Made by a program: the position numbers and the translations under genes. Under the pieces are notes generated by a model. The model searched no databases. It was not told the origin of the DNA and saw nothing but the letters and a program-made list of their open reading frames with translations. Positions 1-12,011 of a stretch of DNA of 15,645 nt are shown here, piece after piece (the first letter of the stretch is position 1; each line of letters begins with the position of its first letter). Origin of the DNA: Methanosarcinales archaeon (GTDB taxonomy: Archaea; Halobacteriota; Methanosarcinia; Methanosarcinales; EX4572-44); NCBI GenBank assembly GCA_004212095.1, contig RXIJ01000051.1:1-15645 (forward strand). Direction: 5' to 3'.

Positions 1-792
1 TGCGATCCGACAGATGATCATTGTCGGTGCGAATTATCTAAGGAGGAAAAGACAGATGCTGAGAGGAGGGAGAAGTTATGTCCTGTGTGTTATCTGTTTG
101 GGTGTGGTGGGTGGAGGAGGAAATTCAAATTGGAATTAAGAGCGGATAAAAATAGAAATATCGGGGATACTATCACAGAACCTCTTGAAGTAGGTAAAAA
201 AATATGGATGAGATTCGTTATCTTAAACAAAATATATCCAGAAGAGTGTACATTGTTAGTAAAAACAATAGAATCAATTTCAAAATATGGTTCCGTTGGT
301 GGAAAAACAGTCTTCAAGCCATCCGAAAATCCTAACAAGAATAACAAGTTACATCATCAAGATTTTGGTTTGATCCAATTGGAAGATAATATAGATTGTA
401 AATTATGTTCACGAGATGATGTTAGTAGATATATAGATAGTTTTAAACAACCTGATAGTGATCCAAATTGGCCCAATTTCAATAATTTTTGGTTTGCCAA
501 TGGAAAAGTATTGAACAGAAAAGTACACAATCAGATCGTTAATCGACCAGATAAAACCCCTACTAGGTATTCTGATAATGCCACAAACTTGCAGAGATGG
601 CTCGGTGGAACTCCTCAAAAAGATAGTAAAAAGATAATCTCCTTCCACACACCATCTGGTAAGCGAACATGGGGTTATGCAAGAAACACTGGAGAACTTG
701 AAGAGATAATTAACATGGTGATTGCAGCGAAAGGTTGGAGCCGAAAGGATTTTAAAAAAGGGGAGGTTGTGCTCAATGAACTCTTCCAATAA
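1..792 (+). CDS. cmr1: Cmr1-like RAMP (Cas7-group) subunit of a type III CRISPR-Cas effector; 5'-truncated by the window edge
   Basis: Frame 1 is open from nt 1, with no stop before the GTG at 85 used by the ORF track, so the gene begins left of the window. Translation from nt 1 reads CDPTDDHCRC...EKLCPVCYLFGCGGW. This is a Cys-rich knuckle directly before the CxxCxLFG motif typical of Zn-binding type III RAMPs. A later Gly-rich segment reads SKYGSVGGKT. It is the first member of a tightly coupled operon with cmr6/cas10/cmr4/cmr5/cmr3-like genes. Family-level assignment (Cmr1 versus another Cas7-like RAMP) relies on position in the operon. Confidence 0.6.
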   Translation, partial: CDPTDDHCRCELSKEEKTDAERREKLCPVCYLFGCGGWRRKFKLELRADKNRNIGDTITEPLEVGKKIWMRFVILNKIYPEECTLLVKTIESISKYGSVGGKTVFKPSENPNKNNKLHHQDFGLIQLEDNIDCKLCSRDDVSRYIDSFKQPDSDPNWPNFNNFWFANGKVLNRKVHNQIVNRPDKTPTRYSDNATNLQRWLGGTPQKDSKKIISFHTPSGKRTWGYARNTGELEEIINMVIAAKGWSRKDFKKGEVVLNELFQ

Positions 793-2143
793 GACCCATG
801 ATTTATGGAATTATCGAAAAATTGTGACCGAGGAAGACATCAAGCAATTGCTTGGAGATGAAAAAATAAATGTACCTTCCAGAATTCAATTGTTAACTCC
901 TGCAGTAGCCACCGATCTAAAAGACCATGCTCGAAGTGGAGATCGTGGTGTGGTGTCTTATATGTCATTAGTCGATAATGCAGACACCAAAAAAACAGAG
1001 TATTCTTATTCAAAATATATTGAGAATAAGTCCGAAATTATGAAAGATATTGGCGTATGGAAGCCAGTGATTCCAAACATGGAAATTCTACCGCGATTCA
1101 GTTGGTTTCTACAATTTAAATTTATACTTGAAAAATCCATGACTAGTAAAGATGATGAAATCTTTTACATAATTGATAACCCGGTGTGCAAAGAAAAAAT
1201 ATTCAAGGTTCCGATGTACCCAGCTTCAAGCTGGAAAGGGCGGCTCCGCTGGGTTGCATCCAAGAACTGGATCGAACATGATGGGTCCGCCGAAGGTCGC
1301 CTTCGCTTAAGTTTGCTTTTCGGCGATGAGACTGGTGAGGAAGGGGGGCGCGGGTTGTCAGTCTATCTGGACAATGCTCACAACGAGTCCAAAGCGCAGT
1401 ATCGAAAAATGTTAAAACAGGTGTTCGGGATTGGTTCTAACGAGGATATGCCCCATCATGCAGGCAAATTGTATTTTTATCCTACATTCTTTAATCGTAT
1501 CGGTCTGGAAGTAATTAATCCACATGATAGAAAAACGCGTGCTGGCACCAAACCAATTTATTTTGAATGCGTTCCAATGGGGGCGGATGGGCATTTTTCA
1601 CTTTTGTTCGTTCCTCGTGACAATAGTGATTATTCAGTTATTGGTGTAATCCAGGATATACGATTCACACTCAAGGCACTGAGTGATATGTTCCTCCTTT
1701 ACGGCTTCGGCGCTAAAACCTCCAGCGGCTTTGGGGTTGCAAAACCGGATCTTACTGAAGGGAACATCATCTTAAAAGCTGTTGGCATAGAAGCCAATCA
1801 AAAAGAGATAGAAAAACCACAACCGCCTGAAGAGGTATATGAAAAGTATCTCAACGAAAATGGCAGCGTTAAGGAGGAATTTAGGGGTAGTGGCAAGGCA
1901 GGGTTACTCAGCAGTCCTGAATATCATGAAAAGGGGAATCAACTGGGTGGAGGGGGTTTTAAAGAATTTGGGAGATTTAAGCAATGGTATGTTAAATCTA
2001 GCGAACGATGGCAGAAGCATCTCAAGTCCAAAGATGCCCCAGCACCTGAATGGCCGAACTGGACATTTTCGAGCTTCAAGGAATTGGCAGAACTGGCTGA
2101 ACAGATTGAAAAATCATTAAATCCTCAGGAGGGACCAAGGTGA
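776..2143 (+). CDS. cmr6: Cmr6-like RAMP subunit with a ~130-aa C-terminal extension
   Basis: ATG at 776 is preceded by GGGAGG (761-766). The TTG at 722 in the ORF track would overlap the upstream gene by 70 nt. RAMP motifs: VPMYPASSWKGRLRW (P-x-SS-x-KG-x-LR type), LLFG, AGKLYFYP and INPHD. The Gly-rich loop YGFGAKTSSGFGVAK matches the Cmr6-type GAKT-x-x-G-x-G signature. Its stop overlaps the cas10 start (GTGA at 2140-2143). Confidence 0.7.
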   Translation: MNSSNKTHDLWNYRKIVTEEDIKQLLGDEKINVPSRIQLLTPAVATDLKDHARSGDRGVVSYMSLVDNADTKKTEYSYSKYIENKSEIMKDIGVWKPVIPNMEILPRFSWFLQFKFILEKSMTSKDDEIFYIIDNPVCKEKIFKVPMYPASSWKGRLRWVASKNWIEHDGSAEGRLRLSLLFGDETGEEGGRGLSVYLDNAHNESKAQYRKMLKQVFGIGSNEDMPHHAGKLYFYPTFFNRIGLEVINPHDRKTRAGTKPIYFECVPMGADGHFSLLFVPRDNSDYSVIGVIQDIRFTLKALSDMFLLYGFGAKTSSGFGVAKPDLTEGNIILKAVGIEANQKEIEKPQPPEEVYEKYLNENGSVKEEFRGSGKAGLLSSPEYHEKGNQLGGGGFKEFGRFKQWYVKSSERWQKHLKSKDAPAPEWPNWTFSSFKELAELAEQIEKSLNPQEGPR

Positions 2144-4797
2144 CCGCTGATCTTAAGATTCTTACAGATAAGCAAGATGACCTGCTGCTGGCAGAGGTTG
2201 CGGCATGGCTGCACGACATGGGAAAATGCAGCGATGAGATGATAGAACGGCAAGCATCAGACAAACCACAACAACCAATTTTTCGGGGTGGAAATGATTA
2301 CAAAATCCATTTTTCACATCTTTTGGGTAGCAAAGCTAATTGCCGTATTGTTCTTAACGGTGAAAACGTCACACTGAAAGATTTGATAGAAAAAGGTATG
2401 CCAAAAGCGATAAGAAATAGCAATGAGTCTTGGATAATTCGATTTTTAGGAAGATGTCACGCTGCAGCTCATATTGAAAAAGAGGGGCAAGCTGATGCAA
2501 AACAAACAATCAACGACACTCGCTTAAGCAGTCCATTTGGATATGAAACAAAACCTTTAATTGGTATTACTTCTGGACTCAAAGGATTACCATTTGGTGG
2601 TATCTCAAACCGATCCCCATTTCTGAATGATCTGAAAAAAGTATTCAAAAATGCACCAGGTGACACTGAAAGACCAATAAATGAAGTGGATCTATGGGAC
2701 TGGTCAAGCATCGTCGCCGCTTTGTGTAAATCGGCTCTGGCTGGTGAACTTCTCGGAAACAAAACACCCAACCCAAACGATTTGAGATGGCGGCTTCTGG
2801 CGATAAGATTTGATTCAGAACAGATATGGGGGACTGCCTCAAAGATGCCGATATTGAACGCAAGAAAAAGGTGGGTTACTGATGGATTGGATAACGTGAA
2901 AAATCTTTTTGAGGAGGAATATCCTCTTGGAAACGAAGTTTACAGGGATGAAAACGGCAGCATATTTGTTGTACCTGACATTCAAGATTTAGTTAAGATG
3001 AGAGACTCTAAAAAAGATAAGACGTTAGAGGAAGTAATATCAGAAACACTTGGGTACAAAGGCGAAATTGTCATCACCCCGTCTATGGATACAGATCCAT
3101 GGTGGGGGCAAGATCCAAAAAGACGTCCTAATGAAGACAAGATTCCACCCATCGGTGAAATTCTCTCTAAAAACCCACGCTCTCCGCCAGATGCAACAAC
3201 AGTGAAACAATGGTGGGACGCGGCTCACGGCAATCCTGAAATGTGCACAATTTCGTGGCTGCGTCCGCAAGGACCGACTAAAAAGGGACTCAACCGAAAA
3301 GCATCGGATCATTGGGCAGAAAAAGTTACAGGTAGAGCAGAAGAATGGCTACGAAATAGACGTGACACAACAATATGGATAGATGAGGCGACAGACACCT
3401 ACGGACGAATCTGTTTGATAACCGGAAAACTCGATATTTCAGATTGGCTGAAACCAGATGGGCACATCAAGACCTTACTCGTAAAACCCCCGGATGCATC
3501 AAATAAGGCAGAACCAAAAACCCCATCCTTTGCCCGCATACGCAGGATATGGACGACCACAAAAACATTCTGGGTTGATGTGACGCGGGATTTACAAGAA
3601 AATATAGATCCAGCCAAGAGGCTGAAGATAACCGGGGAATTTATCCCAGAGAATTCATCCAATCATCTCACAAAGTTCAGCGCCTACGAAGCCGAACTGG
3701 ATGAGGTACGGTTCAGCATCTTCCACGCTGGCGGCAGTGAGTACATCATCACTGATAACCTTCAGCGGCTGGCTGAAAAAATGGACGTTACTGTAGAACG
3801 GTTAAAAGCACACATCGATGGCAAGACCCTGTGTATTTACGATTCCGAAGGAAAAAACAGACAAAAGCCCATCGGTCATCTGGCAGCACCGCAACTTGAA
3901 ACCGAAGCCATATCCTACCTTCCTGCAATACCTATCCTCTCTGAGCCCAGCATATTCATGGCAATTGTTCCTGCCGATAAAGCCCTGAAGGTAGCTAACC
4001 ACATCAAAGAAAAGTACGAGAAAGAGATGGGGAAGGTCAGGAACCGCCTACCGCTCACTCTGGGGATGGTATTTGCCAAATCCCACACCCCATTAGCCGC
4101 TCTGATGGACGCAGGCAGAAGAATGCTTCAGCAGTCCCACGAAGAGGAGGACTGGACACTGTACACGGATGCAATTGATTGCGGTACGGAATGTATCCTG
4201 AACTTCACAAACAAGCAAACATGGCACATCCCTGTGAAGATGGGTGACAAGACAACTGATGACATCTGGTATCCGTACTTCTATGTAAACGGGGTTCCCA
4301 CTGGACGTTCTACTGCGTTCAAGAGTATAAACGGGTGGCTGGTCCATGCCAGGGAATTAAAGAAAGGCGATACAGTAAAAATTTGTCCCTCCAGATTTGA
4401 TTTTGAATTTCTGGATTCTGCTTCCCGCAGGTTTGAGATAAGTTATGATCAGGAAACCGGAAAACGGCGAGATATCTTGAAATCAGAAAGACCCTACCTG
4501 CTGGAGGAACTGGAACATTTTCGGAGATTACGGGGGATTTTTTCTGAAAAAAAATTAGCAAGGACTCAGATCAAGAATATGATCGGTCTTATAGAGACGA
4601 AACGAGAAGAATGGTCATCAAAAAAAGATGATGATATTTTCAGGAGATTTGTTCACGATGTTCTTCACAATGCCAACTGGAATGATGGAATACCTTCCGA
4701 GATAGAGGAATTGGAAGATGCAGCAGTCAGTGGTAAGCTCAGAGATATTGTTGAACTCTACATGGATATAATTAAAAATCAGGAGGAATCTAAATGA
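2140..4797 (+). CDS. cas10: Cas10 large subunit (HD domain present, cyclase GGDD motif absent), type III-C-like
   Basis: 885 aa. GTG start at 2140 lies 6 nt after AGGAGGG (2127-2133). The permuted N-terminal HD motif is AAWLHDMGK (His-Asp at nt 2212-2217), with downstream histidines in GRCHAAAHIEK. The Palm1-like block is LLAIRFDSEQIWG...NGSIFVVPD. The Palm2-like block is RICLITGKLDISDW ... PILSEPSIFMAIVPAD ... RLPLTLGMVFAKSHTPLAALMDAGRRML. This aligns by spacing (~35 aa) with the canonical IYSGGDDIF...LTLSAGI...P arrangement. No GGDD/GGDEF string occurs anywhere in the protein. Confidence 0.85.
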   Translation: MTADLKILTDKQDDLLLAEVAAWLHDMGKCSDEMIERQASDKPQQPIFRGGNDYKIHFSHLLGSKANCRIVLNGENVTLKDLIEKGMPKAIRNSNESWIIRFLGRCHAAAHIEKEGQADAKQTINDTRLSSPFGYETKPLIGITSGLKGLPFGGISNRSPFLNDLKKVFKNAPGDTERPINEVDLWDWSSIVAALCKSALAGELLGNKTPNPNDLRWRLLAIRFDSEQIWGTASKMPILNARKRWVTDGLDNVKNLFEEEYPLGNEVYRDENGSIFVVPDIQDLVKMRDSKKDKTLEEVISETLGYKGEIVITPSMDTDPWWGQDPKRRPNEDKIPPIGEILSKNPRSPPDATTVKQWWDAAHGNPEMCTISWLRPQGPTKKGLNRKASDHWAEKVTGRAEEWLRNRRDTTIWIDEATDTYGRICLITGKLDISDWLKPDGHIKTLLVKPPDASNKAEPKTPSFARIRRIWTTTKTFWVDVTRDLQENIDPAKRLKITGEFIPENSSNHLTKFSAYEAELDEVRFSIFHAGGSEYIITDNLQRLAEKMDVTVERLKAHIDGKTLCIYDSEGKNRQKPIGHLAAPQLETEAISYLPAIPILSEPSIFMAIVPADKALKVANHIKEKYEKEMGKVRNRLPLTLGMVFAKSHTPLAALMDAGRRMLQQSHEEEDWTLYTDAIDCGTECILNFTNKQTWHIPVKMGDKTTDDIWYPYFYVNGVPTGRSTAFKSINGWLVHARELKKGDTVKICPSRFDFEFLDSASRRFEISYDQETGKRRDILKSERPYLLEELEHFRRLRGIFSEKKLARTQIKNMIGLIETKREEWSSKKDDDIFRRFVHDVLHNANWNDGIPSEIEELEDAAVSGKLRDIVELYMDIIKNQEESK

Positions 4798-5750
4798 GTA
4801 AAGATGGTAAAAAGTTGTACACCCACCAGCGTTTTGTGTCAATGGCACTCGACCCTGTGCATATCGGAACCGGGGGCTATCGCCTTGGGCGTGTGGACAA
4901 TACGATAGTCAGAGAGCCCGGAACGAACCTGCCAAAGATACCAGGTACCAGCCTGCTTGGTGCAGCCAGAAGCTATGCTGCAATGCGCTATGGAAAACCA
5001 GAAGCTGCAGGACAACATAAGAAATTAACGAATGATCAAAAGAAGAACTGCCCGATAATCTATACGTTCGGCACATATGCGGAAACAGGGGGCGGTCAGG
5101 CAGGAAAGGTAAGCATCGGTGACGCACATATTCTCTTCTTTCCAGTCTATTCTATGGCTGGTCCTATGTGGGTAAGCACAAAGGAAGTGATAGAATGTGC
5201 TGGCTTTGGATCGAACGGCGTTAATGATATAGGCGATGAGACGGTACACACATCTCTTAACTTGACAAAGGATAGACTCAATCTCGGTTGGTTATTGCTC
5301 AAAGCCGAAACCGGGCTTAGCATAACCTTACCAGATCCAGGCTCAAGCAAAGAAGAATGGCCGGCAATATTCAGTAGAATCGCTCTTGTATCCCCAAAAT
5401 TGTTCTCGCAGATAGTCAACAGCAACCTCGAAGTCCGCACTTCGGTTGCAATAAATCCGGAAACCGGTGCAGCCGAAGATAAGGCATTGTTCACCTATGA
5501 GGCGATACCACGAGCAACATGGCTATGGTTTGATGTGATAGATGATAACTATTCAGGAGCTTTTCCAGTAACTGAAAATCAGTTCAAAGGTGGGGAGGAA
5601 AACAGTGGAGATTCGATTGGAAAGAAATGGGATTGTCCATTAGATGTTGTCAGAACAGGACTTGAACTGGTAGAGTACCTCGGCGTTGGCGGCATGGGTA
5701 CGCGAGGCTTCGGTAGAATTAAACCTCTGGCTGACTGGGAGGTTGAGTGA
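4794..5750 (+). CDS. cmr4: Cmr4-like Cas7 backbone RAMP (target-RNA-cleaving subunit)
   Basis: ATG at 4794 overlaps the cas10 stop (ATGA), with AGGAGG 8 nt upstream. The N-terminal motif MALDPVHIGTGGYRLGRVDNTIVREPGTNLPKIPGTSLLGAARS matches the Cmr4/Csm3 pattern L-x-P-x-H-I-G-x-G...D...P-x-IPG-[ST]S-x-x-G-x-x-R. The catalytic-position Asp is D35 at nt 4896-4898. The C-terminal Gly-rich loop is LGVGGMGTRGFGRIK. Confidence 0.85.
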   Translation: MSKDGKKLYTHQRFVSMALDPVHIGTGGYRLGRVDNTIVREPGTNLPKIPGTSLLGAARSYAAMRYGKPEAAGQHKKLTNDQKKNCPIIYTFGTYAETGGGQAGKVSIGDAHILFFPVYSMAGPMWVSTKEVIECAGFGSNGVNDIGDETVHTSLNLTKDRLNLGWLLLKAETGLSITLPDPGSSKEEWPAIFSRIALVSPKLFSQIVNSNLEVRTSVAINPETGAAEDKALFTYEAIPRATWLWFDVIDDNYSGAFPVTENQFKGGEENSGDSIGKKWDCPLDVVRTGLELVEYLGVGGMGTRGFGRIKPLADWEVE

Positions 5751-6115
5751 TGAATCTTGATCTTGAATCTGCAAAAGCCGCACAGGAAATAATAACAGAA
5801 ACAAAAGAAAGAAAAGCGAGTGAAGTAGAAAATATTATCACCAAAACCCTGGGTGTTCTGCAGGAAAATGGGGTTTACGCGTGCATACTATTCCTTTGTT
5901 CTCGTAACAGCGACTCTGATAATGTGGTTAGAACAAAACTACTTGAAATGACAAAACTGCTGAAACTTGAGCCACCAAATGGAGATAAATCCGAAGACGT
6001 ACTGAAATTTATAACCGACAACATCTGCAACGATATTGACGCCATCCTGCTGACCAAACAACTCTGGGAGCAGATATTGATCTATGCCCGCTATGGTGCG
6101 AAAGCCAGGGAGTAA
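5750..6115 (+). CDS. cmr5: Cmr5-like small subunit (Cas11)
   Basis: A ~121-aa protein whose composition suggests it is mostly helical, lying between cmr4-like and cas5-like genes as in III-B/III-C operons. The segment LGVLQENGVYACILFLCSR resembles the Cmr5 helix-turn region. ATG at 5750 overlaps the cmr4 stop (TGATG); a GTG at 5747 is an alternative start. The call rests mainly on size, composition and position. Confidence 0.55.
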   Translation: MNLDLESAKAAQEIITETKERKASEVENIITKTLGVLQENGVYACILFLCSRNSDSDNVVRTKLLEMTKLLKLEPPNGDKSEDVLKFITDNICNDIDAILLTKQLWEQILIYARYGAKARE

Positions 6116-6119
6116 TAAC

Positions 6120-6908
6120 ATGAGATGGTCCCTCTATCAGGTAAGTCTACGCATCCTTTCACCGATCCATATCGGATGGAGAAAAACAGGGAATCTGCAG
6201 CAAACTCGCCCGTATGTGACTGGCAAGACTCTGTGGGGTGCATTAACGGCTAGACTTGTTAGGGACTTAGGGAATAATAATTATCAGAAAATGGGAAAGA
6301 TTGTTAACGACAAATTGATGTTTACATATTTTTACCCAACTACAGACTCCAGCAAGGTCGTTGTGTGGCCATGGGATGATTCAGATAAATTTTCATGGAT
6401 GTATCTTGGCAGTTACGCCAGTACTGCATTAAAAGACAAAATCGTCGATGAGGGCATGCTACACGAAACAGAGTATATATCCACAAAAACCAGAGATGGA
6501 AAACAGGTATATTTGATGGGATATATTATTGAAAAAGAAGGCTGTGAATTGGCATGGAGAGAGGCACTAAAAAGGATTCAGATTGGTGGCGAGCGAGGAT
6601 ATGGCTGGGGACGTGTTAAACTAATTGACAAACCTAAAAAGAGCAAATATTGTTTTAATAGTTATGCCTTTGATAGTAACAGAGATATACCTCAAATTAC
6701 TGTGCAAAAAGACAAACCAATCCTTGCCCATGCTCTGGTAGATGGATTAAATTGTAATGGAACAATAGAACCTTTTGTTGGTAGAGAGACAAACGAAAAC
6801 AAGGAGTTTGGAGGGGTGGTTTCCAGAGCAGAGATTTGCTGGATTCCAGGCAGTGCAGTAAAGAGAGAAACAATGTTTATGATGTCAGAGAAAGGAATAT
6901 GGAAATAA
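6120..6908 (+). CDS. cmr3: Cmr3/Csx10-like Cas5-group RAMP subunit
   Basis: ATG at 6120 lies 4 nt after the cmr5 stop and is preceded by GGGAG (6106-6110). The ATG at 6084 in the ORF track would overlap cmr5 by 32 nt. The N-terminal RAMP motif is LRILSPIHIGWRKTGNLQQTRPYVTGKTLWGALTARL, the Cas5-group pattern with x-x-T-L-x-G-A-L. The Gly-rich loop is IQIGGERGYGWGRVKL. Confidence 0.6.
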   Translation: MRWSLYQVSLRILSPIHIGWRKTGNLQQTRPYVTGKTLWGALTARLVRDLGNNNYQKMGKIVNDKLMFTYFYPTTDSSKVVVWPWDDSDKFSWMYLGSYASTALKDKIVDEGMLHETEYISTKTRDGKQVYLMGYIIEKEGCELAWREALKRIQIGGERGYGWGRVKLIDKPKKSKYCFNSYAFDSNRDIPQITVQKDKPILAHALVDGLNCNGTIEPFVGRETNENKEFGGVVSRAEICWIPGSAVKRETMFMMSEKGIWK

Positions 6909-6962
6909 GAAAAAGAGCTATGAGATAGTTTGAGATCGGTAAATCCATGACATTAAATAATA

Positions 6963-7013
6963 GAGCGTATCTGGCTACGATGCTACGCATCTTCGCCAAC
7001 TTCAGATACGCTC
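6963..7013. repeat. Perfect 11-bp inverted repeat (hairpin with 29-nt loop) in the cmr3-CBS intergenic region
   Basis: gagcgtatctg (6963-6973) is the exact reverse complement of cagatacgctc (7003-7013). The loop contains a short direct repeat, gctacg (6974-6979 and 6982-6987). Function is unknown; it could be a transcript-end structure or a 5'-UTR structure. Confidence 0.3.
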
Positions 7014-7058
7014 AAAATGGTAAAAAGAACAGCACAACCTAAGTAGGAGGAATATGAT

Positions 7059-7547: not shown

Positions 7548-7554
7548 AATCCGC

Positions 7555-7749
7555 ACACAACGTGAGCAGAACTACACAACCTCGTTGTGTAAAAAATAAC
7601 CTAAAACTTTCAATTCTCGATTGCGGGAAGCAATCGAGTTGTGTAGCAATCAAAATTCATCAAGATGTGATTGTCAATCACCCCTCCCTTCGGAAGGGGC
7701 TTGAACTGTGAGGATCAAGAGTAATTGATTGATTAGGAGGCTTAGAAAT
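7555..7749 (+). ncRNA. Candidate IscB-associated omegaRNA (HEARO-type RNA); boundaries approximate
   Basis: This non-coding stretch lies directly 5' of iscB on the same strand, where IscB guide RNAs are encoded. It holds several strong stems. acacaacg 7555-7562 pairs with cgttgtgt 7583-7590. ctacacaa 7572-7579 pairs with ttgtgtag 7639-7646. ctcgattgc 7616-7624 pairs with gcaatcgag 7630-7638 (9 bp, 5-nt loop). A GC-rich hairpin spans 7681-7699 with a UUC(G)-type loop. cttga 7700-7704 pairs with tcaag 7715-7719. The first two stems interleave in pseudoknot topology. More stems continue into 7784-7845, so the RNA could extend towards 7918. Confidence 0.4.
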
Positions 7750-9108
7750 ATGCAGAAGTTATCAGTAGAGTTTAAGAACACACCAGGGAATGCTTCTCAA
7801 GTTCCTTGCTCTGTAAATGAGATATTAACCAGAGAGGACACTCTCAGTGTATCTAGTAAAGTACTGGCTGATAACAACTCCAATGAGAACCTACACTCTG
7901 GTATGAGTGGACAAAACATGAGAGTATTTGTCTTAAACATGCGTGGCAACCCATTAATACCAACAACACCAGGGAAAGCAAGAAAATTATTAGAACAAAA
8001 TAGAGCAAAGGTTGTGCAGCGAACACCTTTTACGATCCAACTATTATATGCAACAGGAGAAACAAAGCAAGATATTACTTTTGGTGTTGATCCAGGCTAT
8101 TCTTATATTGGCTATAGTGTTGTATCTGATACCACAGAACTGATAGCCGGTGAGGTTGAGCTTAGGAATGATATCACGAAATTGCTTGATCAAAGAGCAT
8201 CTTACCGCCGAACGCGCAGAGGTAGACTATGGCATCGAGAACCACGTTTTAACAATCGAGGCAGGGATAATGGATGGTTTGCACCAAGTATTCAGCACAA
8301 GCTTAATAGTCACATTAATTTCATTGACCGGATAAAGAGCATTCTACCAATAACGAAAACAGTTGTTGAGATTGCTTCATTCGATCAACAGAAGATACAA
8401 AATCCAGAGATATCGGGAGTTGAGTATCAACAGGGTGAATTGTTGGGATATGAGATCAGGGAATACCTGCTCGAAAAGTGGAAAAGGACATGTGCTTATT
8501 GTGGTAAAACTGATATACCACTTGAGATTGAGCATATTATCCCGAAATCAAGAGGCGGTTCAAACCGTGTTAGTAACTTAACAATTGCCTGCCATGCCTG
8601 TAATCAAGCCAAAGATAATATGACTGCTGGAGAGTTCGGGCATCCAACTATCCAGACGAAAGCTAAAAAGCCATTAAAATCTGCTGCTTTCATGAACATT
8701 GTTAAAAAAAAATTGGCAAACATCCTGGATTGTGAAGTCACTTATGGTTATATCACGAAACACGACAGGTTTAAATTAGGTCTTACTAAAAGCCATGTCA
8801 ACGATGCATTCGTAATCGCAAGTGGTAATACTCAACATCGATGTGAAACAGATACTGTAACATTAACAAGGCGTAACAACAGAAGCATCCAAACGAACCG
8901 AAAAGGATTTAAACCGTCTATAAGGAGGCATAGGTATAATCTTCAACCAAATGATCTTGTTGAACATGATGGATTATTATATTGGGTTAAAGGTGTCTTC
9001 AATTATGGAAAATGGGTTCGGTTGGTAGATTCAGCAGGGATTATAATCAATTCAAATATTAAAAAAGTAGAGTTGTTAAAATATGGTAAAGGACTACAAT
9101 TTACGTGA
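7750..9108 (+). CDS. iscB: IscB (OMEGA-family RNA-guided nuclease; RuvC with inserted HNH, Cas9 ancestor-like)
   Basis: The domain order is readable in the translation. PLMP domain: MRVFVLNMRGNPLIPTTPGKARKLL, with PLIP at nt 7951-7962. RuvC-I: FGVDPGYSYIG (Asp at 8089-8091). Arg-rich bridge helix: RASYRRTRRGRLWHREPRFNNR. RuvC-II: TVVEIASFD (Glu at 8368-8370). HNH: CAYCG...LEIEHIIPKSRGGSNRVSNLTIACHACNQAK (His at 8533-8535). RuvC-III: SHVNDAFVIA (Asp at 8803-8805). A C-terminal beta-rich domain reads LVEHDGLLYWVKGVFNYGKWVRLVD. The start is uncertain. ATG 7750 has a strong TAGGAGG (7734-7740) 9 nt upstream. The conserved core begins at ATG 7918, and the ORF-track TTG is at 7729. Confidence 0.85.
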   Translation: MQKLSVEFKNTPGNASQVPCSVNEILTREDTLSVSSKVLADNNSNENLHSGMSGQNMRVFVLNMRGNPLIPTTPGKARKLLEQNRAKVVQRTPFTIQLLYATGETKQDITFGVDPGYSYIGYSVVSDTTELIAGEVELRNDITKLLDQRASYRRTRRGRLWHREPRFNNRGRDNGWFAPSIQHKLNSHINFIDRIKSILPITKTVVEIASFDQQKIQNPEISGVEYQQGELLGYEIREYLLEKWKRTCAYCGKTDIPLEIEHIIPKSRGGSNRVSNLTIACHACNQAKDNMTAGEFGHPTIQTKAKKPLKSAAFMNIVKKKLANILDCEVTYGYITKHDRFKLGLTKSHVNDAFVIASGNTQHRCETDTVTLTRRNNRSIQTNRKGFKPSIRRHRYNLQPNDLVEHDGLLYWVKGVFNYGKWVRLVDSAGIIINSNIKKVELLKYGKGLQFT

Positions 9109-9144
9109 ACACAATTTATCCCCTTTCTTTCGGGAGGAGTCTTC

Positions 9145-9160
9145 AAATTAAGATAAAAAA
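9145..9160 (+). promoter_or_regulatory. Possible archaeal TATA-box-like element for argJ (would give a leaderless or very short-leader mRNA)
   Basis: The A/T-rich run aaattaagataaaaaa is centred ~27 nt upstream of the argJ ATG at 9179. There is no GGAGG-type RBS in between. This rests on sequence inspection only. Confidence 0.25.
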
Positions 9161-9178
9161 GAGGTCGAAACAGGTACG

Positions 9179-10348
9179 ATGAAAGAACTTAACAGTGGAA
9201 TCTGCGCCATAGAAGGTATCAGCACGTGGGGTATTAAAGAAGGGAAATATGGACTTGCCATAATACTTGCAGAGGGTTTTGCAGTTGCTGTCTACACACA
9301 GAATAAAGTAATTGCTGCTCCACTGGTTGTTACAAAGAATCATCTTGAAAGTCAGGAAGGGCGCATAAAAGCAATTATTGTAAACAGCGGAAACGCCAAT
9401 GCCTGCACAGGTCAAAAAGGAATTGAAGATGCAGAGGAAATGTGTAAAATCCTCGCACAAAAGCTCAATTGCAAAAAAGAAGAAATCCTTGTTGCATCAA
9501 CAGGCATAATCGGGCGACTTCTCTCAGTTGACAAAATAAAACAGCAAATAGATAAAGTAATGCCAGGAATTGCATCAGGAAGTGTTGCAAGTCAAAAAAC
9601 AGCAGAAGCAATAATAACCACTGACACCACGATCAAGCAGTTCGCAGTAGAAACCGTGGGGAATGTACACGTTGGCGGTATTGCAAAAGGTGCAGGAATG
9701 ATTGCACCAAACATGGCAACAATGCTCGCTTTTATCTGCACGGATGCGTGTCTTCCATACGATGTTCTACAGGACTGCCTGCAGAAATCCGTAGATAAAA
9801 GTTTTAATATGACAATCGTTGATGGGGATACTAGCACAAACGACATGACAATCCTCATAACCACTGGAAAAAGGGAATGCAACGTAACAGAATTCCAGCA
9901 AGCACTGGATACAACCTGCATCAATCTTGCCAGGATGATGGCAAAAGATGGGGAGGGTGCAACAAAACTAATCGAACTTACGGTAACAGGTGCAGAAACG
10001 CCAGATGACGCAAAAAAGATCGCACGAACGATACTTACATCACCACTTGTAAAAACCGCAATCTTCGGGGAAGACCCAAACTGGGGGCGCATCATTGCAG
10101 CAGCAGGTAGAAGTGGTGCAAACATGAACCAAAAAAAAATAACCCTCAAATTCTCAGACAAGAATGATAGTGCAACAACAATAGATAAGGGAAACATCCT
10201 TGAAACCACGAGCAAAATTAAAAAGATAATGAAATCAGACACCATTAATATAGAACTTGACCTTAACATCGGGAAAGCTACAGCAGCGGGTTGGGGATGC
10301 GACCTTACCTACGAATATGTAAAAATAAATGCAAAATACAGAACATAA
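9179..10348 (+). CDS. argJ: Bifunctional ornithine acetyltransferase / N-acetylglutamate synthase ArgJ
   Basis: Hallmark ArgJ blocks are present: NSGNANACTGQKG, VASTGIIG, AIITTDT, GGIAKGAGMIAPNMATMLAFICTDA (self-cleavage site A-TML), VDGDTSTNDM, KDGEGATKLIE, FGEDPNWGRI and WGCDLTYEYVKINAKYRT. Confidence 0.9.
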   Translation: MKELNSGICAIEGISTWGIKEGKYGLAIILAEGFAVAVYTQNKVIAAPLVVTKNHLESQEGRIKAIIVNSGNANACTGQKGIEDAEEMCKILAQKLNCKKEEILVASTGIIGRLLSVDKIKQQIDKVMPGIASGSVASQKTAEAIITTDTTIKQFAVETVGNVHVGGIAKGAGMIAPNMATMLAFICTDACLPYDVLQDCLQKSVDKSFNMTIVDGDTSTNDMTILITTGKRECNVTEFQQALDTTCINLARMMAKDGEGATKLIELTVTGAETPDDAKKIARTILTSPLVKTAIFGEDPNWGRIIAAAGRSGANMNQKKITLKFSDKNDSATTIDKGNILETTSKIKKIMKSDTINIELDLNIGKATAAGWGCDLTYEYVKINAKYRT

Positions 10349-10360
10349 GAACGTCCTTTG

Positions 10361-11248
10361 ATGATGACTGATAAAAATATTGCGATTATAGCTTTCAAAA
10401 GGGATGAGGTGAAAGCAAGACGACTCCAGCGTAATCTTGGTGCAGACCTGTTGTTCTATTGTGAAGGTGTATTTGAAAAAGCACTTTCGTACAGTGCGGT
10501 TGTAGCAATAATGGCTGTGGGAATAGCGGTTAGGTCTGTAGCTCCCTTTTTAAGGGATAAATGGTCTGATACTCCGCTTGTTGTTGTGGATTCGAATCTA
10601 ACTTTTGCAGTATCTCTTGTGGGGGGACATCATGGTGCAAACGAGCTTGCCTTAAAACTTGGAAAACTCGGACTTGTTTCGGTGATTACTACTGCAACCG
10701 ATGCACATCAAAGACCATCGGTCGAGGGAATTACAAAACAGTTGGGGGCAAGGGTTGTTAACAGACAATCAACAAAAAGTGTGAATCTTGCACTTCTTAA
10801 AGATGATGTACCTGTAATTTATCTCAGTGGCCCAAAAGTTGTGCTGGTTGATGACAATGTTTCTGTGGTTGAAAAGAAAGACCTTCGCGGAAAGTTCATC
10901 GTTGGAATCGGTGCACACCGTAATATTAACAGTGATAAAGTGATTACAGCTGTTATGATGGCAATTGAAACTGCAGGTGTTTCCATTGATGATGTTTCTT
11001 TTTTTGCAACTGCTGAGTTAAAAAAAGGTGAACAGGGACTTATTGGTGCAGCAGAGCATTTTGCCAAGCCAATAGTGTACGTGTCGCACGATATTATTAA
11101 CACGATGAACCCGCCTTCTGCATCAAAGGCGTCACGTCTTGGACTGGTTGGTGTGTGTGAACCCGCGGCTCTTGCAGTATCCCACAAAAAAACAATTATT
11201 CTTCCAAAACAAATCTACGGAGATGTGACCATTGCAATCGCAAAATAA
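10361..11248 (+). CDS. cbiG: Cobalt-precorrin-5A hydrolase CbiG
   Basis: The N-terminal block is NIAIIAF. The C-terminal CbiG block is IVGIGAHRN...VITAVMMAIETAGVSIDDVSFFATAELKKGEQGLIGAAEHFAKPIVYVSHD...GLVGVCEPAALAVS. It lies directly upstream of, and overlaps, cbiH. Start candidates are TTG 10358, ATG 10361 and ATG 10364. Confidence 0.8.
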   Translation: MMTDKNIAIIAFKRDEVKARRLQRNLGADLLFYCEGVFEKALSYSAVVAIMAVGIAVRSVAPFLRDKWSDTPLVVVDSNLTFAVSLVGGHHGANELALKLGKLGLVSVITTATDAHQRPSVEGITKQLGARVVNRQSTKSVNLALLKDDVPVIYLSGPKVVLVDDNVSVVEKKDLRGKFIVGIGAHRNINSDKVITAVMMAIETAGVSIDDVSFFATAELKKGEQGLIGAAEHFAKPIVYVSHDIINTMNPPSASKASRLGLVGVCEPAALAVSHKKTIILPKQIYGDVTIAIAK

Positions 11249-12011
11249 TAACAATAGCAACAACAATAAACTGTATGTAGTTGGTATTGGACCCGGTTCT
11301 GTGCAGGATATGACCATTCGTGCACAAAAAGCACTTGAGACCTCTGAATACATACTTGGAAACAGCACGTATCTTGACCAGATAGCTCCACTACTTGACG
11401 GGAAAAAAGTTATTAGAAGTTATATGGGGGATGAGGTGAAACGTGCACAAAAAGCACTCGAACTTGCAGAGAACAGCATCGTATCCATCATCAGTGGTGG
11501 TGATGCCAACATCTACGGTATGGCAGGACTCGTTCTTGAGGTAGCAGAGAAAAAAGAACAAACCAATATTGAAATAATACCAGGTGTTACTGCTATTACT
11601 GCATCAGCAGCATGTCTTGGAGCACCTATCACAGCAGACTTTGCAGTCATAAGTTTGAGTGATCTCCTTACACCATGGGAAATTATTAAAGAGCGGCTGT
11701 ATGCTGCTGCCAGAGCCGACTTTGTGATAGCCCTCTACAATCCCAAAAGCAGGAAGAGAACAGGTCATCTCAAAGAAGCAATTCAAATAATCTCACAGGA
11801 GAAAAAACCGCAAACACCGGTCGGAATAGCTCAAAACATAACAAGAGAAGGTGAACACACAATCGTCACAACACTTGGAGAATTTATGAAATTCTATGAG
11901 GACGTTGATATGCGCACAACAATTCTCATTGGAAACCGGGAAAGTAGAATATGGAATAACGCCGATAGAGTGATAACACCACGTGGATACCATAAAAAAT
12001 ATGACTACTGA
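11232..12011 (+). CDS. cbiH: Cobalt-factor III / precorrin-3B C17-methyltransferase CbiH
   Basis: Tetrapyrrole methylase motifs are present: LYVVGIGPGSVQDMTIRAQKALETSEYILG and IISGGDANIYGMAGLVLE. The only start-type codon upstream of the GIGPG motif is TTG 11232, which overlaps the cbiG 3' end. The resulting N-terminus has a poly-Asn tract (QNNNNSNNN). Confidence 0.85.
   Translation: MQSQNNNNSNNNKLYVVGIGPGSVQDMTIRAQKALETSEYILGNSTYLDQIAPLLDGKKVIRSYMGDEVKRAQKALELAENSIVSIISGGDANIYGMAGLVLEVAEKKEQTNIEIIPGVTAITASAACLGAPITADFAVISLSDLLTPWEIIKERLYAAARADFVIALYNPKSRKRTGHLKEAIQIISQEKKPQTPVGIAQNITREGEHTIVTTLGEFMKFYEDVDMRTTILIGNRESRIWNNADRVITPRGYHKKYDY

Follow-up and report, generated by a model that had tools for sequence, protein, structure and literature searches.

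The stretch of DNA analysed here, hereafter called the window, comprises 15,645 nucleotides (nt) from a Methanosarcinales archaeon (assembly GCA_004212095.1, contig RXIJ01000051.1). Positions 7673-9152 of the window very probably constitute a non-autonomous transposon of the IS200/IS605 type (ISC), which carries an intact gene for the RNA-guided nuclease IscB together with its omegaRNA and lies between a gene encoding a CBS-domain protein and argJ. IscB elements are known in thousands, archaeal ones included, and as an IscB element the present one is an ordinary, intact member of a known family. It nevertheless represents an unusually complete natural example, in which the occupied site, the empty site in a sister genome, the guide, the target-adjacent motif (TAM) and a mobile sibling copy are all available and all consistent with the published homing model. 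The features of the element are as follows; all are located on the plus strand.

7673-9152: whole non-autonomous IS200/IS605-type (ISC) element, 1480 bp, delimited by the empty-site comparison and the onset of homology
7657-7672: predicted omegaRNA guide TCATCAAGATGTGATT, host flank just outside the transposon end and immediately 5' of position 1 of the HEARO model
7673-7909: omegaRNA scaffold, HEARO match 7673-7894 plus an additional 3' terminal hairpin 7894-7909
7918-9108: conserved IscB domain set, 396 amino acids (aa), with PLMP, RuvC-I, bridge helix, RuvC-II, HNH, RuvC-III and a C-terminal beta-rich region
7951-7962: PLMP motif (here PLIP), aligned with the PLMP of OgeuIscB and TbaIscB
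8089-8091: RuvC-I catalytic Asp, aligned with OgeuIscB D61
8173-8262 (approximate limits): Arg-rich bridge helix, Pfam RRXRR; helix in the model at residues 142-158; R153, R157 and R163 invariant
8368-8370: RuvC-II catalytic Glu, aligned with OgeuIscB E193
8491-8604: HNH insert between RuvC-II and RuvC-III, with CAYC 8491-8502, catalytic His 8533, SNLT 8572-8583 and CHAC-N 8590-8604
8794-8805: RuvC-III H-x-x-D, His and Asp at 8794 and 8803 aligned with OgeuIscB H340 and D343
9109-9152: transposon end distal to the omegaRNA (left end in the nomenclature of Meers et al.), decayed, from comparison with relatives and DNA folding
9153-9157: ATAAA, predicted TAM, 3' of the target in omegaRNA orientation, adjoining the insertion in the empty-site comparison

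Identity of the protein and boundaries of the element

The open reading frame (ORF) at 7729-9108 on the plus strand comprises 459 codons from a TTG and contains ATG codons at 7750, 7903 and 7918. Residues 66-363 of the 459-aa translation match the NCBIfam equivalog guided_IscB (NF040563) with 384.9 bits, the curated cutoff being 175, and in Pfam the family RRXRR was found with 215.5 bits and HNH_5, HNH and HNH_4 at residues 255-303. Models for Cas9 and Cas9d touched the HNH region only and remained far below their cutoffs (TIGR01865, 35 against 100; Cas9d, 60 against 375). A sequence search of the PDB returned exclusively chains of the IscB, IsrB and Cas9 type, led by TbaIscB, OgeuIscB and engineered IscBs with E values from 2e-46 to 4e-38. 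An AlphaFold2 model, built on 96 homologues, was confident in its core, and the best PDB matches obtained with Foldseek were IscB-omegaRNA-DNA complexes (8csz with an E value of 8e-27, 9nvu, 9liq, 7utn and 7xht), followed by IsrB (8dmb) and Cas9-type proteins including Cas9d (9lgi, 9k31).

Within the 96 homologues the catalytic residues are invariant or nearly so, and P68 and P71 in the PLIP motif (residues 68-71) hardly vary. The RuvC residues align with D61, E193, H340 and D343, which are named as catalytic in OgeuIscB (Kato et al., 2022, PMC9640706). The HNH insert follows the pattern CxxC...H...N...CxxC, with CHAC at 8590-8601, and its His aligns with the HNH His of OgeuIscB. Residues 403-451 are beta-rich with high predicted local distance difference test (pLDDT) values and may correspond to the C-terminal WED/TAM-interacting domain of IscB; the Foldseek alignments to IscB extend over about 500 columns. 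An earlier note on this DNA, made from the letters alone, had described a full IscB layout with PLIP, D at 8089, E at 8368, H-x-x-D at 8794-8805 and the HNH motifs, and all of these were recovered at the same positions. Judged from profiles and predicted structure, the protein is an IscB with a RuvC fold. Its public annotation as a 'hypothetical protein' (EF812_04375) is out of date.

As reference for the boundaries a contig of Ca. Argoarchaeum ethanivorans was used (L052, RPGO01000026.1), which is element-free at the orthologous site. Its flanks share 93-96% nucleotide identity with the window on either side of the element, and the CBS gene and argJ are adjacent in it; the contigs L053 and L054 show the same CBS-argJ arrangement and are further empty sites. 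With a slash marking the junction, the empty site reads ...CAAGATGTGATT/ATAAAAAGGAGG and the occupied site of the window ...GATGTGATT(7672)/element/ATAAAAAAGAGG(9153...); in longer form, the empty site is ...AGCAATCAAGATGTGATT/ATAAAAAGGAGGTC and the occupied one ...ATCAAGATGTGATT(7672)/element/ATAAAAAAGAGGTC(9153...). Because of this alignment the ends of the element were set at 7673 and 9152. The insertion lies beside a short AT-rich motif and is not accompanied by a target-site duplication (empty ...GATGTGATT/ATAAAAAGG, occupied ...GATGTGATT/element/ATAAAAAAG), which is the habit of IS200/IS605 elements. Moreover, the similarity among about 24 related loci starts sharply at GTCAA(T/C)CACC, corresponding to window position 7673, and the DNA upstream is specific for each locus. 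The earlier note had let the element extend over 7548-9150; positions 7548-7672, however, are host intergenic DNA which is conserved in the element-free relative.

A 94.6% identical copy from a different metagenome (L051) can be aligned to the window over 7673-9124 without a single gap, but its upstream flank is unrelated. The occurrence of two such similar copies in different flanks is evidence, at the level of sequence comparison, of recent mobility. The insertion between the CBS-domain gene and argJ is younger than the split from the genome with about 94% identical flanks (L052), and it appears to be recent in a host that, by the same comparison, is a near relative of Ca. Argoarchaeum ethanivorans within the Methanosarcinales.

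The motif ATAAA, which follows the element, is the reverse complement of TTTAT, a target motif of the TnpA type, and G/ATAAA was found after the end structure in nine independent relatives. In the empty site of L052 (5969-6000, corresponding to window 9153-9178) the TAM is contained in TTATAAAA, some 20 nt ahead of the argJ start codon. The sequence TTATAAAA resembles an archaeal TATA box, the insertion splits the motif (GATT/ATAAAA), and argJ has been displaced by 1.5 kb from its former upstream region. A TAM of the ATAAA type could steer such elements toward archaeal promoters.

The host spacer between the CBS gene and argJ contains two hairpins, a perfect one at 7616-7638 (CTCGATTGC-GGGAA-GCAATCGAG) and a near-perfect one at 7556-7590 (CACAACG...CGTTGTG), and the spacer of L052 has a related, partly duplicated version with GCAATCGAG repeated. 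Both hairpins were considered as transposon-end structures and rejected, since they belong to host DNA that the relative without the element has conserved as well.

omegaRNA, guide and proposed mechanism

The Rfam family HEARO (RF02033), an RNA that was later shown to be the omegaRNA of IscB (Meers et al., bioRxiv 10.1101/2023.03.14.532601), matches the plus strand at 7673-7894 over the full length of the model (positions 1-211) with 114.9 bits, compared with a gathering score of 83. HEARO RNA occurs in the same position at seven related loci. For 21 relatives RNAalifold gave 36 consensus pairs, 25 of which show compensatory double changes. The terminal hairpin at 7894-7909 lies outside the Rfam model, and its two arms co-vary across the relatives, as judged by eye in the alignment; this fits the remark of Meers et al. 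that RF02033 lacks downstream elements.

The guide was predicted with a length of about 16 nt, which was taken from the work on OgeuIscB (Kato et al., 2022). Its 14 TAM-proximal nucleotides match the empty site of L052, and these are the positions that matter for the guide according to the same authors. The flanks of the relatives are unrelated at this stretch, and within the window no second match to 7657-7672 was found.

Starting from the anatomy, family membership, boundaries, guide and TAM geometry, purifying selection (see below) and mobile sibling copy established by these comparisons, a course of events can be inferred from the family. As the omegaRNA starts outside the element, transcription would come in from the host DNA upstream, where the CBS gene is oriented in the same direction as the element. 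The resulting RNA would comprise a flank-derived guide of about 16 nt (7657-7672) and, after it, the scaffold (7673-7909), and IscB would be translated off the same transcript, most likely at AUG 7750 within the scaffold. The ribonucleoprotein would then bind guide-complementary DNA with a 3' ATAAA and cut the target strand by HNH and the other strand by RuvC. Its natural target would be the unoccupied CBS-argJ site, which the sister genome possesses and which agrees with the guide at 14 of 16 bases, and repair of the break from an occupied copy would retain the element or allow it to home. The occupied site would be immune, because there the guide sequence is adjoined by the scaffold and not by ATAAA. 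Mobility would require a TnpA in trans.

Start of the IscB reading frame

Gene callers assign 450-460 aa to most homologues, compared with the approximately 396 aa of the conserved domain set. The following features, likewise on the plus strand, bear on the start.

7750-9108: probable full IscB ORF, 452 aa plus stop, 100% identical to the 452-aa GenBank entry EF812_04375
7735-7740: AGGAGG, Shine-Dalgarno (SD)-like, 9 nt before ATG 7750; GGAG 7736-7739 forms the arm of a long-range pairing
7750-7917: 56-codon N-terminal leader, also encoding omegaRNA scaffold, predicted disordered

Start sites were compared in 25 sequences of the clade for which DNA was available (window 7735-7917 and related loci L013-L044). 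In all 25 relatives an AUG follows the conserved AGGAGG, at a distance of 5-13 nt with the exception of L031, where the spacer is 23 nt, the pairing arm has changed to GAGAG and the AUG is preceded by a separate, inserted AAGGAG. From this AUG up to the IscB domain the frame contains no stop codon in any of the 25 sequences; the other two frames contain 110 and 94 stops, and shuffling gave a chance of 0.3-6% per sequence for the absence of stops. The leader measures 168, 171, 174, 177, 180, 186 or 279 nt in 21 sequences and keeps the frame of IscB in all of them. The four other sequences have leaders of 172-173 nt, and their upstream ORF stops just before, on or just after the IscB start codon (2 nt ahead of it, 4-6 nt beyond it or, in one case, 29 nt inside IscB); the junctions take the forms TAATG and (A/G)TGTTAG. 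These four uncoupled IscB starts are each preceded by a separate AGGAGG, 8 nt away. In the fused lineages no SD sequence is present at the canonical IscB start, apart from a four-base GAGG core in L002 and L021, and L013, L018, L029, L040 and L024 lack any ATG, GTG or TTG within -8 to +4 codons of it. At ATG 7918 of the window, too, no SD sequence was found.

The leader peptide itself shows no sign of constraint. Substitutions in the leader lack codon periodicity (0.344/0.322/0.334 for the three codon positions, compared with 0.287/0.204/0.508 in the core), and in the AlphaFold2 model residues 1-55 have a pLDDT of about 30 and no secondary structure. As far as these substitution patterns tell, the amino acid sequence of the leader is not under selection, and the idea that the leader is a genuine folded domain was rejected on the same two grounds. 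The RNA of this region does take part in the scaffold: GGAG 7736-7739 pairs with CUCC 7878-7881 in a pseudoknot that coincides with the pseudoknot brackets of HEARO, and the pairing columns (72-75/241-244) show changes on both sides in two to three sequences.

From these data the IscB product is most likely the 452-aa protein starting at AUG 7750, with 7918 as a possible minor or alternative start. That IscB instead starts at ATG 7918 as a 396-aa protein, with the upstream frame untranslated and 7673-7917 purely non-coding, is rather unlikely in our estimation. This start would agree with the presence of ATG 7918 in both the window and L051, with OgeuIscB and other characterised IscBs, which begin about 12 residues before PLMP, and with the unconstrained, disordered nature of the leader. 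It is opposed by the stop-free frame of all 25 relatives, by leader lengths that vary and yet remain in frame, by the out-of-frame lineages, which end the upstream ORF near an IscB start with its own AGGAGG, and by the fused lineages, which have no SD sequence and in five cases no start codon there. The length of 396 aa from Met 7918 given in the earlier note hence describes the conserved domain but probably not the product. Similarly, the long structured non-coding region that was seen upstream of the gene is real as the HEARO RNA at 7673-7894; its 3' two-thirds, however, are overlapped by the open frame from ATG 7750.

In our reading of the 7750 start, ribosomes enter at an SD-AUG within the scaffold, and for this reason the frame has to stay open. 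The AUG would then take the place of a small scaffold hairpin, and about 56 unconstrained codons would be read through structured RNA. Extended to the whole, mostly archaeal IscB clade, this leads to a tentative model to which we give somewhat less than an even chance: the nuclease frame would begin in its own scaffold, so that each transcript either folds or is translated, and binding of IscB would hide the SD sequence and result in autoregulation. Purely as a hypothesis, the SD sequence could be hidden by folding or by bound IscB, and IscB synthesis would thereby be limited; through the overlap of ORF start and omegaRNA, a selfish nuclease could have a simple means of limiting itself. In practice, the selection of archaeal IscB orthologues for genome editing may lead to clones with a wrong N-terminus or with a scaffold which contains a ribosome-binding site. 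No description of an ORF start inside an omegaRNA was found in the searchable literature, Altae-Tran et al. (2021) and Weinberg et al. (2009) being outside its reach; Meers et al. mention only that some HEARO matches overlap annotated ORFs.

Two observations concern upstream frames elsewhere in the set. In L002 and L021 the IscB frame is open for 121 codons, through the 5' part of the scaffold and into the host flank, which chance or read-through from a host gene may explain. The more distant IscB genes of L033 and L034 (53-54% identity) have an in-frame, K/E-rich N-terminal extension of 66-71 codons that is unlike the omegaRNA-derived leader.

State of the copy, rival readings and relation to known systems

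The conserved core of the window and that of L051 differ at 64 positions, 16, 11 and 37 of which are first, second and third codon positions. The ratio of nonsynonymous to synonymous substitution rates (dN/dS) is 0.236, which indicates purifying selection on the IscB protein ever since the divergence of the two copies. The sequence characteristics of IS200/IS605 (ISC) elements and of IscB are present, apart from an intact distal hairpin and a local TnpA. As the earlier note had already remarked, there is no tnpA: no ORF of at least 100 aa in the window matches Y1_Tnp. Near iscB genes tnpA is found in about 1.5% of the cases and is absent from about 98.5% of the loci (Meers et al.). The absence of a local TnpA therefore bears on the autonomy of the element and not on its family membership.

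The distal end of the relatives consists of a nested structure of NNNNCAATT, an inner hairpin, TCTTC and TTGNNNN, and the two arms of its outer stem co-vary, as judged by eye in the sequence listing. In the window the outer 3' arm is lost and the inner stem is weakened, and several points that weigh against the interpretation as a functional homing element have to be set out here. Folded as DNA, the distal hairpin of the window is decayed, with -1.7 kcal/mol (z-score +0.5), compared with -8.0 and -11.7 kcal/mol in two relatives. Owing to this decay the cycle of excision and homing may be broken in cis, and the copy may no longer be a substrate of TnpA or be excisable. Furthermore, the guide differs from the site in the sister genome at two TAM-distal positions (guide positions 15-16), and at 7653-7662, in the TAM-distal part of the guide, the window has ten extra bases (AAATTCATCA) relative to the empty site of Ca. 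A. ethanivorans. The hairpin on the omegaRNA side is intact, with -11.0 kcal/mol (z-score -3.1). As a separate observation, AAATTCATCA resembles a short duplication around ATCAA.

Could the element be a decayed relic, an immobile and non-functional remnant whose ORF is intact by chance? The decayed distal hairpin, the missing tnpA and the fact that a single copy was seen would fit. Such a remnant would nevertheless have retained an ORF of 452 codons with all catalytic residues conserved and an omegaRNA match of full length; it would have kept its dN/dS at 0.24 and its gapless alignment to a copy at another locus, and it would have been inserted after the split from the genome with about 94% identical flanks. 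We regard this explanation as very improbable, and the suggestion of the earlier note that the nuclease is working rather than decayed gains support from the intact catalytic residues, the omegaRNA and the dN/dS relative to L051, all of them properties of the sequence. A shade less probable still is a domesticated IscB with a host role in defence or regulation, perhaps tied to the neighbouring type III CRISPR effector genes. These genes (85-6908) end only about 650 bp upstream, and with its decayed end the copy is probably fixed in place. The element is, however, absent at the orthologous site in three related contigs, its guide is a mere insertion flank and a near-identical copy exists at a different locus; the CBS gene, which separates the element from the CRISPR genes, is part of the conserved CBS-argJ synteny, and the window contains no CRISPR array or repeat. 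The earlier note had left the choice between a non-autonomous and a domesticated copy, of which the former stands and the latter is unsupported, given the empty site of the sister genome and the origin of the guide. A CRISPR association of IscB was likewise rejected, as no arrays are present in the window; neither adaptation genes nor a Cas9 profile match above its cutoff were found that would place the locus in type II CRISPR-Cas9.

Some database sources name homologues 'McrA' or 'HNH endonuclease', which would speak for a plain McrA-like HNH endonuclease that acts without RNA guidance. The protein has RuvC motifs on either side of the HNH domain, scores more than twice the cutoff of the guided_IscB equivalog, matches the fold of IscB, IsrB and Cas9 across the RuvC lobe and is encoded adjacent to a HEARO RNA. 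By the profile search, the HEARO match and the comparison of predicted folds this reading is already refuted, and the probability that we leave to it is negligible. The two checks named in the earlier note, a search with IscB and Cas9 models and a test for the RuvC fold by profile and structure comparison, have thus both led to IscB.

The reading as a non-autonomous ISC element with intact IscB and omegaRNA can be compared with systems of known function. With OgeuIscB-omegaRNA (PDB 7XHT, 7UTN, 8CSZ; PMC9640706) the window shares the order PLMP, RuvC-I, bridge helix, RuvC-II, HNH, RuvC-III and, presumably, the C-terminal TAM-interacting region, the aligned catalytic D/E/H/D and HNH His and a HEARO-type scaffold with a 5' guide. 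The identity in the Foldseek alignments, however, is only about 21-25%, the conserved domain of 396 aa is 100 aa shorter than the 496 aa of OgeuIscB, and the predicted TAM is ATAAA instead of the NNRR type. OgeuIscB starts about 12 residues before PLMP, whereas the ORF of the window appears to start inside the scaffold. The ISGst IscB elements of Geobacillus stearothermophilus (Meers et al.) are also non-autonomous, have an AT-rich TAM which equals the TnpA target motif, share the orientation of the upstream gene and have the empty site or donor joint as predicted target. They differ from the element described here in the TAM (TTCAT for GstIscB, TTTAT/ATAAA in the window), and the window element has an archaeal host, a decayed distal end, no cognate TnpA identified and an ORF that overlaps the omegaRNA.

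A core of RuvC and bridge helix is common to the window protein, IsrB and Cas9d, the type II-D Cas9, and in Cas9d the HNH domain is shared as well. In contrast to Cas9d, the window has no CRISPR array or adaptation genes, and the Cas9 and Cas9d models remain far below cutoff; because HNH is present, the protein is not an IsrB. For the use of one DNA stretch as both guide-RNA scaffold and nuclease ORF, a precedent in the same superfamily is TnpB with its omegaRNA, also called reRNA. The omegaRNAs of TnpB lie within or downstream of the ORF (Meers et al.). There the overlap affects the 3' end of the ORF and a conserved region of the protein, whereas in the window it affects the 5' end, the translation start itself and an unconstrained peptide.

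Upstream of the CBS gene, positions 85-7018 of the window harbor a type III CRISPR effector gene set with RAMP proteins and a Cas10 palm domain, in place of which L052 and L053 carry argC and further genes. The synteny with L052 sets in only from about 7019 onward; the CBS gene is hence bordered by a second indel.

A further IscB element was detected near the same gene in a Ca. Methanolliviera contig (L003, CABGHG010000004.1). This element of 1700 bp (9649-11348, 61% aa identity) lies inside argJ after codon 11, at an ATAAA. A shared argJ insertion site of the window and L003, reached by homing, was considered and rejected, as position and guide are different; L003 is a second, independent insertion at the 5' end of argJ. 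Precise removal of the L003 element restores MVTVTNRAADE/IKGGICAIEG (the slash marking the insertion). An ORF from ATG 11253, at the 3' end of iscB, crosses the transposon end and continues in frame into argJ, and ArgJ of L003 may carry an N-terminus that is encoded by the element.

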